A DNA stretch of 64,000 nucleotides, from contig JACKGO010000001.1 in assembly GCA_020631975.1 (NCBI GenBank), positions 131,409 to 195,408 of the forward strand, read 5' to 3'. How positions within the stretch are numbered: the first letter of the stretch is position 1; each line of letters starts with the position of its first letter. Positions 13,715 to 43,523 of the stretch are shown piece after piece. The position numbers were made by a program, and so were the translations under genes. Origin of the DNA: Candidatus Nomurabacteria bacterium. Its GTDB lineage: Bacteria; Patescibacteriota; Saccharimonadia; Saccharimonadales; CAIOMD01. The notes below the pieces were generated by a model that had not been told where the DNA came from, did not search any database, and worked only from the letters and a program-made list of their open reading frames with translations.

Positions 13715-14050
13715 ATGACTACGATCATAGTCACCTGTAAGTTTGAAGATTGTCGAGAAGAATGCACAATCTCGGCACAAGAGGTTGTTCTTGTGATCCA
13801 CAAGGACCCAGAAGAGAGTTTCTATAGTTTCATGTGTACGGCTTGCAAGCGGTACAATAAGAAGCAAGCCGATGAATACACCATCTCGTTGATTGAAGGG
13901 TACGTGACCGTAACTACCGTTGTGGAGCCGTCACCGGTACGCTACTTTTGCAAAGACCCTATCAGCGAGCACGATATACAGTGCTTCGTCTTTGATCTTG
14001 CAGATAACGCACTTACCGGTGCGCATATCCAAGAAGAGCTCGAAGAGTGA
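13715..14050 (+). CDS. Hypothetical 111-aa protein (GC-rich island)
   Basis: ATG 13715 is preceded by TAAGGAGG 7 nt upstream, so it is preferred over the ORF-track start at 13685. Sequence MTTIIVTCKFEDCREECTISAQ... No family recognised. Confidence 0.55.
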   Translation: MTTIIVTCKFEDCREECTISAQEVVLVIHKDPEESFYSFMCTACKRYNKKQADEYTISLIEGYVTVTTVVEPSPVRYFCKDPISEHDIQCFVFDLADNALTGAHIQEELEE

Positions 14051-14153
14051 TCGGCAGCCCATGCAGGTATAACCCGCAAGGGCAACCAGTGTACGGTAGT
14101 ACCCTGAGTGCACAATCGCCCCTACACGGCTGTGCCTGCTTATCATACCCACC

Positions 14154-14181
14154 ATGGCCGCTCCCTTAAAAGAGCGGCCAT
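14154..14181. terminator. Bidirectional hairpin between convergent genes
   Basis: Perfect 10-bp stem ATGGCCGCTC / GAGCGGCCAT with loop CCTTAAAA. Confidence 0.55.
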
Positions 14182-14185
14182 TTAC

Positions 14186-14692
14186 CTAGCTACCTAAATA
14201 TTCTTGTATGTTTAGGTAAATAGCATCCATTATTGTTTGTGGTACTGCGCGTTGGTATGGGTCATCCCAGGGAGTTTTGTAGTGTTTACCAAAGTCGTTG
14301 TCTGTAAACGTATAACCTTGCAGATAAACTGTATTTTTATAGCGTGGCCGAACATGAAAGTGCACGTGTGGTGACTGTGTGTTTGCGGTGTCTTTATATG
14401 CATCGTTCATTAAACAAGCCCAATTAAATAGGTCTGCACCATAGGCCGAACTGATAGCGTTTTCTAGTGCTATTATAACTTGATGCAAATCATCCCACTG
14501 AGCTTTAGATAATGCTGCCAAACTACGTGTATGTTTTTTAGCCGTCACGAAACTACGCCCCAAAAACTGTTGATCTGGCGCGAGACTTACCATCCACAAA
14601 TCTGTTTCTAGTAGTACATACTTAGTGTTTGGTAATAATGTACAGATTTCGCACGACTGAGTCATGTAATTATTGTAGTAGATTGTACCCAT
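14186..14692 (-). CDS. HIT (histidine triad) family nucleotide hydrolase/transferase
   Basis: HVHFHVRPRY is the HxHxHxx triad. Start taken at MGTIYYNN (14692), because the upstream part of the ORF covers terminator hairpins. Confidence 0.75.
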   Translation of the reverse strand: MGTIYYNNYMTQSCEICTLLPNTKYVLLETDLWMVSLAPDQQFLGRSFVTAKKHTRSLAALSKAQWDDLHQVIIALENAISSAYGADLFNWACLMNDAYKDTANTQSPHVHFHVRPRYKNTVYLQGYTFTDNDFGKHYKTPWDDPYQRAVPQTIMDAIYLNIQEYLGS

Positions 14693-14726
14693 AAGAAGAA
14701 CCCCTCGCCGTATTAGGTACGAGGGG
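14693..14726 (-). terminator. Intrinsic terminator downstream of pckG
   Basis: Minus strand CCCCTCG-loop-CGAGGGG followed by TTCTTCTT. A second GC hairpin, GTGGGGCCC...GGGCCCCAC, lies at 14743-14780. Confidence 0.55.
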
Positions 14727-14791
14727 TGGTGTTCGTGCTGTGGTGGGGCCCGCGGGCTTGGTAAGCCACATGGGCCCCACTCACACACTTG

Positions 14792-16600
14792 CTACGAGCG
14801 GATCAGGTTCAACCCACTACGTAGATTCTTTTGCTCTTCAAAGAGCTGCTTTGGCGGATTGCCAAAGCTCATGAAGTGCGCAGTGAGCTTTGGTAGCTCT
14901 TCTTTCCATGCCTCTGCGTCACATTCACTGAGCGGCAGAACGTCTGGCGAGGCCACGCCTTCTGCAGCAAACAGTTGGTCATTCGGAAACGGCAGGTTCC
15001 CGATTGCTGTTTGCCGCGCATTTACTGTTCCTTCGAGCCTGTCAAAGATCCAGCGCAAAACCCGTGAGTTTTCGCCAAATCCCGGCCAGATGAACCTCCC
15101 GTTTGCATCTTTGCGGAACCAGTTCACCGCAAAGATACGGGGTAGTTGCTTGCCCGGCTGGTCAAACTTCAACCAATGGGCGTAGTAGTCAGAAATGTTA
15201 TAGCCAAAGAACGGCAACATTGCTGACGGATCAAAGGCGAGCTCCCCCACCTTGTCGGTGATGGCAGCAGCGGTCGTTTCGCTGGCAACCGAAGCTGCCA
15301 TAAATACGCCCTGTTGCCAGCTTTGAGCTTCGCGCACTAACGGCACAACACTCGCACGCCTGCCACCGAACAAGATTGCCGATATCGGAACACCAACCGG
15401 ATCATTCCACTCGTCTATTAGTGCAGACGGGCAGTTTTCGATTGGCGCGGTGAACCGTGCATTGGCGTGAGCTGCCAACTTACCACTTGCAGGATCGTAC
15501 GCTTCGCCCTGCCAGTCAATCAGATTTGCTGGCGCTTCGTCTGACAGGCCTTCCCACCATACATCGCCATCACTGGTGATGCCAACGTTAGTGAAAATGA
15601 CATTGCCCTTGCGGAGCGTTTCGATTGCCACCGGGTTGGTGCTTTCGCCCGTACCGGGTGCAACCCCAAAAAAGCCCGCTTCTGGGTTGATCGCCCTCAG
15701 CGTTCCATCTTCTCCAAACCGCAGCCAGGCGATGTCATCGCCTATGGTTTCGACCTTCCAGTCTGGAATAGTCGGTACCATCATGGCAAAGTTGGTCTTG
15801 CCACAGGCACTTGGAAAGGCCGCAGCCATGTAGCGCTGCTTGCCTTCTGGGTTGGTCACCTTGATGATGGCCATATGCTCTGCCATCCAGCCTTCATCCC
15901 GTGCAATTACGCTTGCTATGCGCAGCGCAAAGCACTTTTTGCCCAACAGGGCGTTTCCACCGTAGCCACTCCCGTAAGATACGATTTCTCGCGTTTCTGG
16001 GAACTGTACAATGAACTTGTCTTCGACGTTTGGCTGGCATGGCCAGCTGGTGTCTTGTTGACCTTCAGCCAGCGGTGCACCCACTGAATGGAGTGCTTTC
16101 ACGAACTGGCCATCACTGCCCAACTCATTAAGCACGGCACTGCCCATACGCGTCATGATGCGCATGTTCATAACCACATAGGGGCTATCGGTGATTTGCA
16201 CACCAATGTAGCTCATTGGCGACCCGATTGGCCCCATACTAAAGGGGATGACATACATCGTCCTCCCCTGCATGCAGCCCGTCATGCGACGGTTGAGTTC
16301 TGCCCGCATTTCGCTAGGTTCTACCCAGTTATTGGTAGGACCTGCATCTTGCATGCGTTCAGAACAGATGAACGTGCGCTGAACCACCCGTGCAACATCG
16401 CTAGGGTGGGTCCTGCAGTAGTAGCTGTTTGGCCACTTCTGCTCATCCAGCTTGGTAAACACGCCTTTCGCGACCAGTTCGGCCGCAAGTTGGTCGTATT
16501 CTTCCTGCGAACCATCGCACCAGTGTATTGACTGTGGTGTGGTTAGCCTTGCAACTTCCATTACCCAAGCGTTAAGCTTGGCATGGAATCCACCTTCCAT
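14792..16600 (-). CDS. pckG: Phosphoenolpyruvate carboxykinase (GTP)
   Basis: 602 aa. Long blocks match the actinobacterial GTP-PEPCK as I remember it: [76 protein letters not shown] precedes the ATG. Confidence 0.95.
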
Positions 16601-16762
16601 TACTACCTCCTCAGGTAGGTACTCCAGGTTTATTGGTAAACCCAGTTATTATAATTATAAAATAAATTACAGAGTTATACCAGAGGTAGTATTTACCTGT
16701 CTTTAAAATAAAAAAACTCCCAAACAAATGAGAGTATAAAAAATATTTTACATACGAATTAT

Positions 16763-16807
16763 GGTGGGCGTGGAGGTGCATAGACTATGCACACTCACAC
16801 GCCCACC
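16763..16807 (-). terminator. Long GC hairpin downstream of the 16818-17231 gene
   Basis: GGTGGGCGTG ... CACGCCCACC outer stem with a nested GTGCATAG/CTATGCAC stem. A second hairpin plus U-run lies at about 16710-16735 on the minus strand. Confidence 0.5.
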
Positions 16808-16817
16808 GCTCTGCCCG

Positions 16818-17231
16818 TCACAAATCCGGGTTGACTGACCCAGCCGGAACGACGCTTTCGTGCGTCATGTCGTTCCACTTTTTGTATTCCTGGTTACTGC
16901 GCCAAAAGTGCCATCCACTGTAGCCAAAGCTGATCAAGCCGAGTGCCACGAACAGCGACAGCAATGCATCCGGTATGTACCCCCAAAAAACTGGGTTGAC
17001 GGCCTTCTGACCCGCTAGGGCTTCTGTCTGGTACATTGTGGCCCAGGCGGTTGCCCGTAGCACGAGCATCACCATGTAGGTGCCGACGAAGGCGATGCCA
17101 GCCAGCAGGCTGGCGACCTTCTTGCGGGTTCGGGCTGGGTACTTGTCGCTCAGAGCGACAAGTACGGCTAGTGTTCCAGGTAGGAACACGCTCGCGGCCA
17201 TAACAGCCGTATTGTAGCTGGACAGTTCCAT
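16818..17231 (-). CDS. Hypothetical membrane protein (about 4 TM), very GC-rich
   Basis: 137-aa hydrophobic ORF. SD GGAGGTGG lies upstream of the ATG. Confidence 0.6.
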   Translation of the reverse strand: MELSSYNTAVMAASVFLPGTLAVLVALSDKYPARTRKKVASLLAGIAFVGTYMVMLVLRATAWATMYQTEALAGQKAVNPVFWGYIPDALLSLFVALGLISFGYSGWHFWRSNQEYKKWNDMTHESVVPAGSVNPDL

Positions 17232-17340
17232 TTATTTCCACCTCCGTATGTAAACGAACAAAGCGGTATTATAATAGCATAAAATGAAATATATGCAATA
17301 TATACGTATATCTACCCAGTAAATAGATAAATATGAAAAA

Positions 17341-17410
17341 GCCCGCAAAAAGTACGCCGGCTGGAAATAGCTGCTTTTCTAGCGTTTATTTCCGGGCTTT
17401 TTCTGCGGGC
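17341..17410 (-). terminator. Extended hairpin plus U-tract downstream of the 17420-17671 gene
   Basis: Minus strand GCCCGCAGAAAAAGCCCGGAAATA...TATTTCC.GCCGG...TTTTTGCGGGC followed by TTTTT. Confidence 0.45.
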
Positions 17411-17419
17411 AGTTGCCCC

Positions 17420-17671
17420 CTACTCCATTGTAATCGTCACGTCGTGACCCAACATACCGAACTTGCCTAGTTGTGCTAAGTCTTGCCTGAGCGTTCGGAC
17501 TTGGTGATCGTTGCGCAGCGTCACGTGGACCGATTCTCTGTCACACGGTACGACGGACGCAAAGTGACCACTTTCTGTGAGTGTTGCATCAAGAAGACGC
17601 ATGTGGGCAGGGTCTACGCTAAGTACCCAATCCCTTTTGCTTACTCCTTTAGAGACCATGATATGTACCAT
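17420..17671 (-). CDS. Hypothetical 83-aa protein (GC-rich island)
   Basis: ORF only; no motif recognised. Confidence 0.4.
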   Translation of the reverse strand: MVHIMVSKGVSKRDWVLSVDPAHMRLLDATLTESGHFASVVPCDRESVHVTLRNDHQVRTLRQDLAQLGKFGMLGHDVTITME

Positions 17672-17806
17672 GATTACTCTTTCTACTAGAGATGATATAG
17701 GACGTAGTCTAGTATACCATATTTACAAGAAAAAGCACACTTTAGCCCCACTACTGTTATATGTGAACGGTACTGCTTATGGTATATTTATGGTAAAGGA
17801 GAACAC

Positions 17807-18565
17807 ATGCAAGAAAATACAAACCCTACAAAAGACACACCATCACCAGATGGTGCTACGGTTGCACCATTAGGGACTACTCACCCACTGGTGCAAGACA
17901 GTCAACCCGTGCAAGGTGCGAACACACCTACAAACCCCATGGTAACACCAGCCCAAGTAGTTCCGAGTGCTGGTATTTACCCAGAAGCAACGAAAGGCTT
18001 TGTTGGTGCTTTACAAACAAGCTCAGCTGAAGACCCACTACAATCACTCTCAGAAGATTCAAATAGTGGGCAGTCACTACTGTTCGTGAGTGCTTTTGCG
18101 GTTTCGTTCGCATTGGTTCTTAGTATTGTTGCTAGTGTCAGTGGTGTTCTAGAAATTATTTTTAACCATGTGGGCAAAACAGCCACAAGCAGCACCAGTT
18201 CGTATCTTGGACTAGATACCTATGAGTTAAAACTACTTTTGTGGCTCGTTTCTAGTTTAGTAATATCAACTGTGGTATATGTACTCATGGTGTTGTATCT
18301 ACAAAAAAATAACGAAGTACGCCTGACTGATTTTTCACTTAAAGTAAAAGGTTTTGTGTATGGGGCCTTTTTGTCAATTCTTGCAGTGGCGACAGTAACG
18401 TCTGTAGCCAATATCGCCTATTCAGCACTTGTACCACTGGTGCCTAAAGGGAGCTACGAAACATCTACCGGTGCATGGTGGCCTGGGATTGTGCAGGCTG
18501 TATTAACGAGCTTGCTTCTTGCCGGAATAGCTTTTTATTATGTAAAAAAAGCTAAAAGGTTGTAA
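17807..18565 (+). CDS. Hypothetical membrane protein with Pro/Thr-rich N-terminus
   Basis: 252 aa. Low-complexity N-terminal 90 aa, then four hydrophobic helices. Confidence 0.55.
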   Translation: MQENTNPTKDTPSPDGATVAPLGTTHPLVQDSQPVQGANTPTNPMVTPAQVVPSAGIYPEATKGFVGALQTSSAEDPLQSLSEDSNSGQSLLFVSAFAVSFALVLSIVASVSGVLEIIFNHVGKTATSSTSSYLGLDTYELKLLLWLVSSLVISTVVYVLMVLYLQKNNEVRLTDFSLKVKGFVYGAFLSILAVATVTSVANIAYSALVPLVPKGSYETSTGAWWPGIVQAVLTSLLLAGIAFYYVKKAKRL

Positions 18566-42216: not shown

Positions 42217-42474
42217 TCAAGAGCATGTGTTTGATAAATACTTTTCTTCTAGATACCGTGTAATTGCTGTTTCACCAATTACTTTGCACGTTAATGTAAC
42301 AAGAGTCGGGTCCTTGTAAGCATCGCTGTCTATGGTGCATGTAGCGATAATTGACCCGTTATTTCTGACTTGTTGAATAACGTTATGTAATGCGGCAGTA
42401 ATCTCGTTAGTAAAAATTGAACCTGCCACATTAGGCTCTGGCCTCGCTTCCGGAAAAAACATTGCCGTACTCAT
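42217..42474 (-). CDS. Hypothetical 85-aa protein
   Basis: ORF only. Confidence 0.4.
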   Translation of the reverse strand: MSTAMFFPEARPEPNVAGSIFTNEITAALHNVIQQVRNNGSIIATCTIDSDAYKDPTLVTLTCKVIGETAITRYLEEKYLSNTCS

Positions 42475-42523: not shown

Positions 42524-42547
42524 TAAAAAAACACCATATTAAGGTGT
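42524..42547 (-). terminator. Intrinsic terminator of the orphan transcription unit
   Basis: Minus strand ACACC-ttaatat-GGTGT followed by TTTTTTT. Confidence 0.55.
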
Positions 42548-42605
42548 ATGTATTCATGTTTGAATGTTGTGTTGCCGGAGGGCTCGGGCGAGTTAATTAA
42601 TGATC

Positions 42606-42653
42606 TCATGCACCGATTGCGAACAAAATCACAATCAAAATGGTCCAAAGCAT
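42606..42653 (-). CDS. 15-aa hydrophobic micro-ORF (MLWTILIVILFAIGA)
   Basis: Own translation. AAAGGAG (42667-42661) lies 7 nt upstream of the ATG; TGA stop. Not in the ORF track because it is too short. Confidence 0.4.
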   Translation of the reverse strand: MLWTILIVILFAIGA

Positions 42654-42975
42654 AGGACGACTCCTTTCTGTGACTGGTACTGTGCTTCCCAGATCACGCA
42701 CTGCTTACTCTTAGCAAGCAATAAGCACTGATGCGATCTGGGAAATGTTCAACAGTATTTTTAGATTTAACTAACCGAGTAGCCAATGACCTTCGTTCAT
42801 TTGTTGAAGCGTCTATCTTGTACCTGGTTTAGTTTCTCTTTTTGGTTCCTGAATCGCTAACTGAGCACCTTAGTGTACTGCAAGGTCGGTGCGCACTATA
42901 TGAGCCAGGAATATCACTAGAAAAGAGCCTGATATTTTTGTTTAATCGCTACTTTAATTAAATAGCGTGAGAACC

Positions 42976-43004
42976 ATTATAGTACAAAATACTATAAATG
43001 TCAA
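42976..43004 (-). promoter_or_regulatory. Consensus sigma-70 promoter
   Basis: Minus strand TTGACA (43004-42999), 17-nt spacer, TATAAT (42981-42976). Confidence 0.6.
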
Positions 43005-43030: not shown

Positions 43031-43523
43031 TTAGGGTGTATGTGCACCGGCGGCAGCTTTTGAAAGAAGTTCGTTTATGTCTAGCTTATGCTCATGATGG
43101 ATAATGCCCACTGTACTGAACATTTTAATAGATAAATCAAAAGAATCTATCCATCGTTGGCGTAATTCGGGCTGCGGTGTGACAAAATGAACTTCGGCGA
43201 CTCCTGCTTGAATCATCAGTTTAGTGCAGTCAGAACACGGGTGATGAGTAACGTAAGCAATGCAGCCATTCAGTGCTGCGCTGCGCGCGGCAGCATTAGG
43301 TAGTGGCGTTTTGTTCAGCATGTATAGTCAGTGCGTATTTGTCTGTACGTGACATAGTGGCAATAGTTTCGTCTGGCCAGTGGCGTGGAAAACCGTTATA
43401 ACCCTGTGCTAGTACATCCCCTCGCTGGGCATCTACCATAATACAGCCTACTTTCGTAGAGGGATCTTTGCTTTTGAGTGCAACTGCCGCGCTTAGGATT
43501 AAATACCATTCATGTTTTGTCAC
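43031..43523 (-). pseudogene. dCMP (deoxycytidylate) deaminase interrupted by a frameshift
   Basis: The upstream ORF ends TIHAEQNATT* (HAExNA zinc motif). The downstream ORF in another frame carries HHPCSDCTKLMIQAGV (PCxxC). The join is near 43296-43321. Confidence 0.75.

Follow-up and report, generated by a model that had tools for sequence, protein, structure and literature searches.

A probable SPFH/Band-7 gene remnant with a conserved leader RNA and a predicted Shine–Dalgarno-sequestering helix in a Saccharimonadales genome

Translational riboswitches and other leaders that sequester the Shine–Dalgarno (SD) sequence, such as RNA thermometers and ribosomal-protein leaders, are linked in cis to a downstream open reading frame (ORF). 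In riboswitch-type leaders, a structured domain, recognizable by covarying stems and invariant nucleotides at its junctions, is combined with an upstream anti-SD strand that pairs with the SD, and in tandem-domain riboswitches (glycine, NAD+-I) two related arms follow one another. Long folded 5' UTRs in which long-range pairing hides the SD of a small ORF are also a hallmark of type I toxin mRNAs (hok, tisB, fst). Integron cassettes and idiomorph-style alleles, on the other hand, are characterized by unrelated ORFs alternating in one promoter-proximal slot, and internal deletions in reduced genomes leave promoter, start and terminator behind as remnants. To our knowledge, very few regulatory RNAs are known in the CPR/Patescibacteria. 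Here we analyse a minus-strand transcription unit at positions 42524-43004 of a 64,000-nt stretch of a Candidatus Nomurabacteria contig (hereafter the window). We consider it likely that this region comprises the promoter, a conserved cis-regulatory leader, the first 13-15 codons and the terminator of an SPFH/Band-7 (stomatin/flotillin-like) membrane-protein gene that has suffered a deletion of ~0.95 kb.

Relatives of the locus were fetched via the adjacent dCMP deaminase (65-82% identical proteins), those for the RNA comparison via both the deaminase and the SPFH proteins. In these relatives, SmpB is followed by the deaminase, a variable interval, exonuclease III (ExoIII) and a HAD hydrolase. 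A scan of the GTDB species-representative genomes with SmpB gave no close relative, the best match being a Saccharimonadales MAG at 53% identity.

The unit opens with a sigma-70-type promoter, TTGACA-17 nt-TATAAT (43004-42976; coordinates are window positions on the minus strand unless noted), which matches the consensus at 12/12 positions and is the sole such match in a 3-kb scan. In the leaders of 10/11 relatives it is kept as TTGAC[AT]-17-TATAAT, with a spacer ending in TTTGTAC. At the other end lies an intrinsic terminator, ACACC-loop-GGUGU followed by U7 (42524..42547, by sequence check), which is also found 3' of intact cargo in the loci L086, L087 and L101 and appears from this comparison to be native to the SPFH unit. 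A first-pass annotation of the window had read these two elements as the ends of a single transcription unit, and the sequence analysis supports that reading. The predicted 446-nt transcript folds with a minimum free energy (MFE) of -136.8 kcal/mol, compared with -99.4 +/- 5.7 kcal/mol in dinucleotide shuffles (z = -6.6; 0/100 shuffles equal it).

Near the 3' end of this transcript, a 15-codon ORF with its stop (42653-42606; translation MLWTILIVILFAIGA*) follows the strong SD AAAGGAG (42667-42661) at a distance of 7 nt from ATG 42653, as the first-pass annotation had recorded. In a BLAST comparison with L101, 94% DNA identity extends as far as TTGTTCGCAATC (window 42615, codon 13), and homology restarts at window 42590 (CGCCCGAGCCCTCCGG / CGCCCGAGCCC). 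Between these points a 24-nt scar, GGTGCATGAGATCATTAATTAACT (42591..42614), stands in place of 963 nt in L101, and the stop codon TGA of the 15-codon ORF falls inside this scar. The leader in L101 and L100 is followed by a 317-aa protein, which starts MLWTILIAILFAIS... or MLWTILIVILLAIS...; the intact L101 protein matches Pfam Band_7 at E = 6e-20, and a match of E = 4.6e-20 is obtained in L087. Five more SPFH homologues (73-82% identity) are found syntenically behind the same leader in L105-L111, where the order is SmpB ... leader - SPFH - ExoIII and the SPFH start is always MLWTILIA. The relatives' ORF in the frame and position of the stub is an SPFH protein of 312-335 aa. SPFH is therefore the usual occupant of this site, and the window a deletion derivative, in which ~0.95-1 kb would have been lost with the SPFH gene body and half of a 3'-UTR hairpin. 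Homology to SPFH covers stub codons 1-13 and possibly 1-15; since the SPFH N-terminus in L107 is MLWTILIAVLFAIGAAAL, the Gly-Ala codons 14-15 may also be original SPFH sequence. We accordingly interpret the MLWTI start as the putative N-terminal membrane anchor of the 317-aa protein, and the micro-ORF as an apparent deletion by-product in which membrane-anchor codons run into a stop codon supplied by the scar. The idea in the annotation that the peptide might be a truncated relic is thus upheld by DNA and protein homology to the 5' end of the syntenic SPFH gene. Regarding conservation in related genomes, the leader and codons 1-13 are found there, but the small ORF as such is not conserved.

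L081-L085, L088-L090 and L103, at least 9 independent metagenome contigs, have identical copies of the deletion allele; because these derive from several samples, it is apparently no assembly accident. In other strains, whose flanks are 99.6-99.8% identical, the slot is filled by SPFH or by another gene pair. The downstream flanks of L087 and L086 are 99.8% and 99.6% identical to the window, respectively, the leader of L099 is nearly identical, and in all three loci intact cargo is joined at exactly the boundaries of the deletion allele. In L087, the flank is joined at window 42590 to the 3' end of SPFH with its complete 3' hairpin; L099 is identical to the window through CACAGAAAGG and then continues into a different gene.

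The leader upstream of the stub is ~310 nt long in total and consists of a 5'-terminal hairpin, an anti-SD strand, a core domain, a long 3' hairpin (P5) and the SD strand, in this order. The 5'-terminal hairpin CACGCUAUUUAAUUAAAGUAGCG (42947..42969), taken from the MFE fold prediction, has ends (CACGCU...AGCG) that are kept in most relatives around a loop of varying length. The conserved core (42777..42935, ~160 nt) is built from stem P1 (42902-42911 with 42846-42855), stem P2 with the invariant loop CUAAGGUGCUCAGUUAGC (42856-42894), a variable hairpin, and the P4 hairpin (42783-42814), which is flanked by invariant ACAAGRUAG and CAUUG; the consensus of the invariant loop across leaders is CUAAGGUGCYCAGUUAGC. 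RNAalifold recovered P1, P2 and P4 from the core alignment. With this structure held fixed, 98.2% of cells are standard pairs, compared with at most 53% when the partners are slid by 1-3 columns. Nine pairs, located in P1 and P4, show two-sided (compensatory) changes, a number reached by 2/500 shuffles, and these changes occupy 28 cells, reached by 0/500; the comparison comprises ~10 distinct sequences from a narrow clade, whose relatedness inflates the covariation statistics. P2 is invariant across leaders, and its pairing is neither supported nor contradicted by covariation. A pseudoknot between the core GUUAGC and either the sequence after CAUUGC or the GCUAAGAGUAA motif was considered and dropped, as it was not conserved by eye.

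With a covariance model of the core (R1), the window scores 149.4 bits, and every relative scores 132-157 bits. The core is single-copy by R1 in the 64-kb window, and R1 has no match in L093 or L001. The first ~230 nt of the unit, including the promoter, are kept in L091, L094 and L095 as well. The 18-nt core motif CTAAGGTGCYCAGTTAGC retrieved seven more genuine metagenome loci, whereas a further match, L102, was discarded as a chance match in GC-rich DNA; the motif is absent from 2.9 M viral contigs, and a viral or mobile origin of the leader was rejected on this ground. Rfam 15 at gathering thresholds reports only two tRNAs in the window, both elsewhere in it; a permissive scan of the region (E <= 10) yields noise only and no tmRNA, and nine relatives' loci give nothing at E <= 0.1. 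Literature searches found no papers on Saccharibacteria together with SPFH and, at the level of titles and abstracts, nothing relevant on CPR riboswitches, horizontal gene transfer or GC content. The leader is a structured RNA new to Rfam 15 and to the searched literature, and it is narrowly distributed.

R1 also has a second match within the leader, which coincides with P5 (42678..42758, RNAalifold consensus of 7 leaders). This match reaches 30.1 bits (E = 6e-6) in the window and 20-33 bits in every SPFH-type leader, and in an alignment P5 resembles the P1-P2 arm of the core with its flanks; the leader therefore appears to hold two related arms in tandem. This arrangement recalls the tandem-domain riboswitches, but the second arm lacks P4 and the invariant loop CUAAGGUGC...CAGUUAGC, and the two arms are alike only in the P1/P2-like stems and the sequence flanking them. 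The two perfect 10-mers that the annotation had placed at the ends of a long imperfect hairpin, TTCCCAGATC (42686-42695) and GATCTGGGAA (42735-42744; both given on the plus strand), are present and lie as arms within P5. Also of note, a 10-18-nt block, (TTRACAA)GCTAAGAGTAA, recurs at differing leader positions: in the window it falls in the P5 loop (42705-42714), in L091 (7121-7138) and L095 (4918-4935 and 5038-5055) before P5, and in L105 and L109 before the anti-SD strand, in the 5' parts of the leaders.

Directly 5' of P1, a stretch of ~15 nt is complementary to the region around the SD. This anti-SD strand, GGCUCUUUUCUAGUGA (42914..42929), and the SD strand UCACAGAAAGGAGUC (42659..42673), which includes AAAGGAG, are predicted to form a long-range helix, P0, whose strands are ~250 nt apart. 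In the window, RNAduplex gives -21.7 kcal/mol for the pairing of GGCUCUUUUCU-AGUGA with UCACAGAAAGGAGUC, which spans positions -22 to -5 as counted from the ATG, and against shuffled 5' strands the helix has z = -5.4 to -6.2 (0/300 as good). Every SPFH-type leader has a predicted anti-SD:SD helix (z = -2.1 to -6.3), whose sequence differs by species, for example CUUCUGUGAAU/AUUCACAGAAG in L106 and UUUCUUCUAGAACU/AGUUC-AUAGAAGGGA in L109; at the sequence level, a helix retained through such changes amounts to covariation. In the proposed mechanism, the anti-SD segment 5' of the core would pair over ~250 nt with the SD region and would block translation initiation by default, while the core would sense a ligand, protein or RNase as the signal for opening or processing P0. 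P0 would then regulate translation, with the core as the putative sensor that receives the opening signal. The annotation had pictured a structured 5' UTR that limits translation: its structured part stands in the fold statistics above, and its limiting effect is consistent with the SD occlusion predicted for P0.

Like riboswitch-type leaders, this RNA therefore combines, as far as sequence comparison goes, a structured, covarying domain with invariant nucleotides upstream of an ORF with a predicted SD-occluding platform, the latter in all SPFH-type leaders but absent from the three divergent other-cargo leaders L091, L094 and L095. It differs from them in having no Rfam match, in that its ligand- or protein-binding role is putative, and in that its sequestering helix encloses a domain of ~250 nt instead of forming a local hairpin. 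The search for an alternative, ON-state helix was negative: a mutually exclusive local helix between the anti-SD strand and the P1 3' flank gave z = -2.4 to +0.6, no better than shuffles, and this candidate switch helix was dropped. A helix of -14 to -22 kcal/mol is presumably too stable for a simple RNA thermometer. Taken together, the leader most likely represents a cis-acting translational control leader that is now stranded on a gene stub. We assign it, from its predicted structure, to the broad class of SD-sequestering cis-regulatory leaders and regard the micro-ORF as an ordinary remnant. With its promoter, covariation, SD-sequestering helix and lack of a database match, it offers a tractable orphan riboswitch or leader candidate.

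The ~440-nt transcript of the deletion allele might be more than inert debris, for instance a free-standing non-coding RNA that titrates a core-binding factor. The retention of a perfect promoter, intact structure and terminator would fit such a role, as would the commonness of the allele. However, only a few SNPs separate the leader from its counterpart in L099, where the cargo is intact; the deletion must therefore be recent, and that the leader has been kept is uninformative on selection. Moreover, L093 lacks the whole unit, which is therefore dispensable. We thus regard a free-standing RNA as unlikely: the long non-coding RNA that the annotation had offered as an option survives as a residual possibility for the deletion allele only. 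The locus resembles known pseudogenes and deletion remnants of reduced genomes, with a recent internal deletion that has left promoter, start and terminator in place and with a neighbouring deaminase that is frameshifted as well; it differs from them in that the regulatory RNA which it keeps is intact and unusually elaborate.

The deletion can further be placed within a locus whose content varies. Directly after the stop codon of every cargo type lies a GC-rich 3'-UTR hairpin, CCGGAG.UGG.CYBGGGCGGGG...CCCGCCCRG.CC.CUCCGG with a small inner hairpin (full form for example at L087:809-868), which might act as a 3' stabiliser of the mRNA. The complete hairpin is present in L086, L087, L101, L098, L094 and L105-L109, with 5 covarying pairs; in the window, the deletion took its 5' arm and loop and left the 3' arm CGCCCGAGCCCUCCGG (42590-42575). 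The cargo lies between the SD, whose ...AGG precedes the ATG by 5-9 nt, and a conserved gene end '...AAG TAG/TAA' with this hairpin behind it. A single frame of promoter-leader and 3'-hairpin/terminator (window 42575-42663 for the interval concerned) encloses at least five cargo sets among L086, L087, L091, L094, L095, L098, L099, L101 and L105-L111. Besides the usual SPFH (for example in L101 and L105-L111), these are a 109-aa TM protein with a 178-aa lipoprotein (L098, L099, L086), a 103-aa TM protein with a 308-aa SPFH-like lipoprotein (L094), a membrane protein of at least 228 aa (L091) and a glutathionylspermidine-synthase-like protein (L095). The cargo ORFs have 52-61% GC in genomes of ~40% GC, the SPFH genes have a GC3 of 0.64-0.77 compared with 0.27-0.40 in neighbour genes, and the named SPFH homologues at ~45-55% identity are mostly from Actinobacteria. 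In L093 (4474-4871), an unrelated 396-nt AT-rich spacer between an 81%-identical deaminase and ExoIII has no promoter-leader, no cargo and no R1 match; the whole unit is therefore accessory.

These features are shared in part with integrons, in which unrelated ORFs likewise alternate in one slot, flanked by conserved sequence and a 3' hairpin and with a composition unlike that of the host genome. The leader end could be viewed as attI-like and the GC-rich 3' hairpin as attC-like, with the window as an almost empty slot; differing GC-rich ORFs indeed fill the exact interval, and they vary within one species (window, L099, L087, L086) as well as between species. Yet there is neither an integrase nor any other recombinase gene adjoining the site in the window or any locus examined, nor are there repeated attC-like sites or an attC consensus, and each locus has one hairpin rather than one per gene (L094 and L098 have two genes and one hairpin). 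The window also retains 13 SPFH codons and therefore originated by deletion, not cassette excision. With no adjacent recombinase and a single hairpin per locus, cargo exchange by homologous recombination in the conserved flanks, which would also explain the junctions shared across species, is favoured, and we consider an integron-like mechanism very improbable.

More speculatively, the core could be a new two-arm sensing RNA, riboswitch-like or protein-binding, of a Saccharimonadia-like CPR clade, which together with the 3' hairpin forms a fixed frame for swapping foreign, Actinobacteria-like envelope genes (SPFH, lipoproteins, a GSP-synthase-like enzyme) between strains. We put this forward as a tentative model that is rather unlikely to hold in full. 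If true, epibionts would have a slot under regulation into which surface or membrane functions derived from the host could be placed. The alternation of GC-rich envelope genes within AT-rich genomes points to a recombination hot spot, which may record gene flow from high-GC bacteria into epibionts.

Returning to the stub itself, the annotation had seen in the unit a layout resembling that of type I toxin-antitoxin loci. On such a reading, the 15-aa hydrophobic peptide would be a membrane toxin, silenced by its folded leader together with an antisense RNA. The unit does recall hok, tisB or fst mRNAs in its small hydrophobic ORF, its strong SD and a folded leader that hides the SD by long-range pairing. 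However, the ORF corresponds by homology to codons 1-13 of the gene for a 317-aa SPFH protein, its frame continues for ~317 codons in relatives, where it is not kept as a small ORF, and its stop codon sits in the deletion scar. The leader is common to full-length non-toxin genes, and a consensus scan found no promoter-like site for an antisense RNA on the plus strand within 42524-43004. Type I toxins, at about 20-60 aa, are also not known to be as short as 15 residues. A toxin-antitoxin locus is thus highly improbable here, and the case illustrates that internal deletions can yield convincing toxin-like mini-genes. Highly improbable as well is descent from a Lmo0937-type small membrane protein of ~45 aa, which the annotation had suggested from the MLWTI start, presumably a feature of that family: the 31-aa extended peptide (the 15-aa ORF being too short alone) has no NCBIfam match at E <= 10, none of 12 loci has an intact ~45-aa Lmo0937-family gene behind the leader, and the homology at both DNA and protein level is to the SPFH genes of syntenic relatives. 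Finally, a known RNA gene, be it a divergent tmRNA, RNase P RNA, 6S RNA or another Rfam family, can practically be dismissed: tmRNA genes often adjoin smpB, which lies ~570 nt upstream on the same strand, but ARAGORN detects no tmRNA in the window, the Rfam scans of the region and relatives, which the annotation had seen as a route to a known RNA, return no known family, and the RNA lacks tRNA-like ends and in every case leads into an ORF downstream, so a tmRNA beside smpB was rejected.

Several minor observations concern the neighbourhood of the unit. The annotation had described the upstream deaminase gene as frameshifted, and comparison with the intact 163-aa allele of L081, otherwise 99% identical, confirms a 1-nt insertion; the frameshift (window ~43295-43305) lies inside a cluster of four substitutions and could be either real pseudogenisation or a local assembly or consensus error. 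The 85-aa ORF downstream (42217-42474), annotated by NCBI as a hypothetical protein and described in the first pass as an orphan, is a near-orphan with only 2 clusters: its sole relatives are the 86-aa protein P0002 of L096, which is 65% identical, and a homologue of 82 aa in L101. Clade-restricted and without a Pfam or NCBIfam family, it is absent from most relatives, where ExoIII follows directly 3' of the cargo. The best-placed SD near it (AAGGAG) precedes another frame of 17 codons, whose start, ATG 42483, is not kept in L086. Elsewhere in the window, positions 14001-18000 have 49-51% GC compared with 40-43% in the remainder; Rfam finds no rRNA match there, and the segment may be another compositionally foreign island. 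The interval between SmpB/deaminase and the leader also varies among relatives, with a 712-aa protein without a Pfam family in L091 (4445-6583), and an Abhydrolase_9 protein with a 50-aa ORF in L109 (745-2586) and L110.
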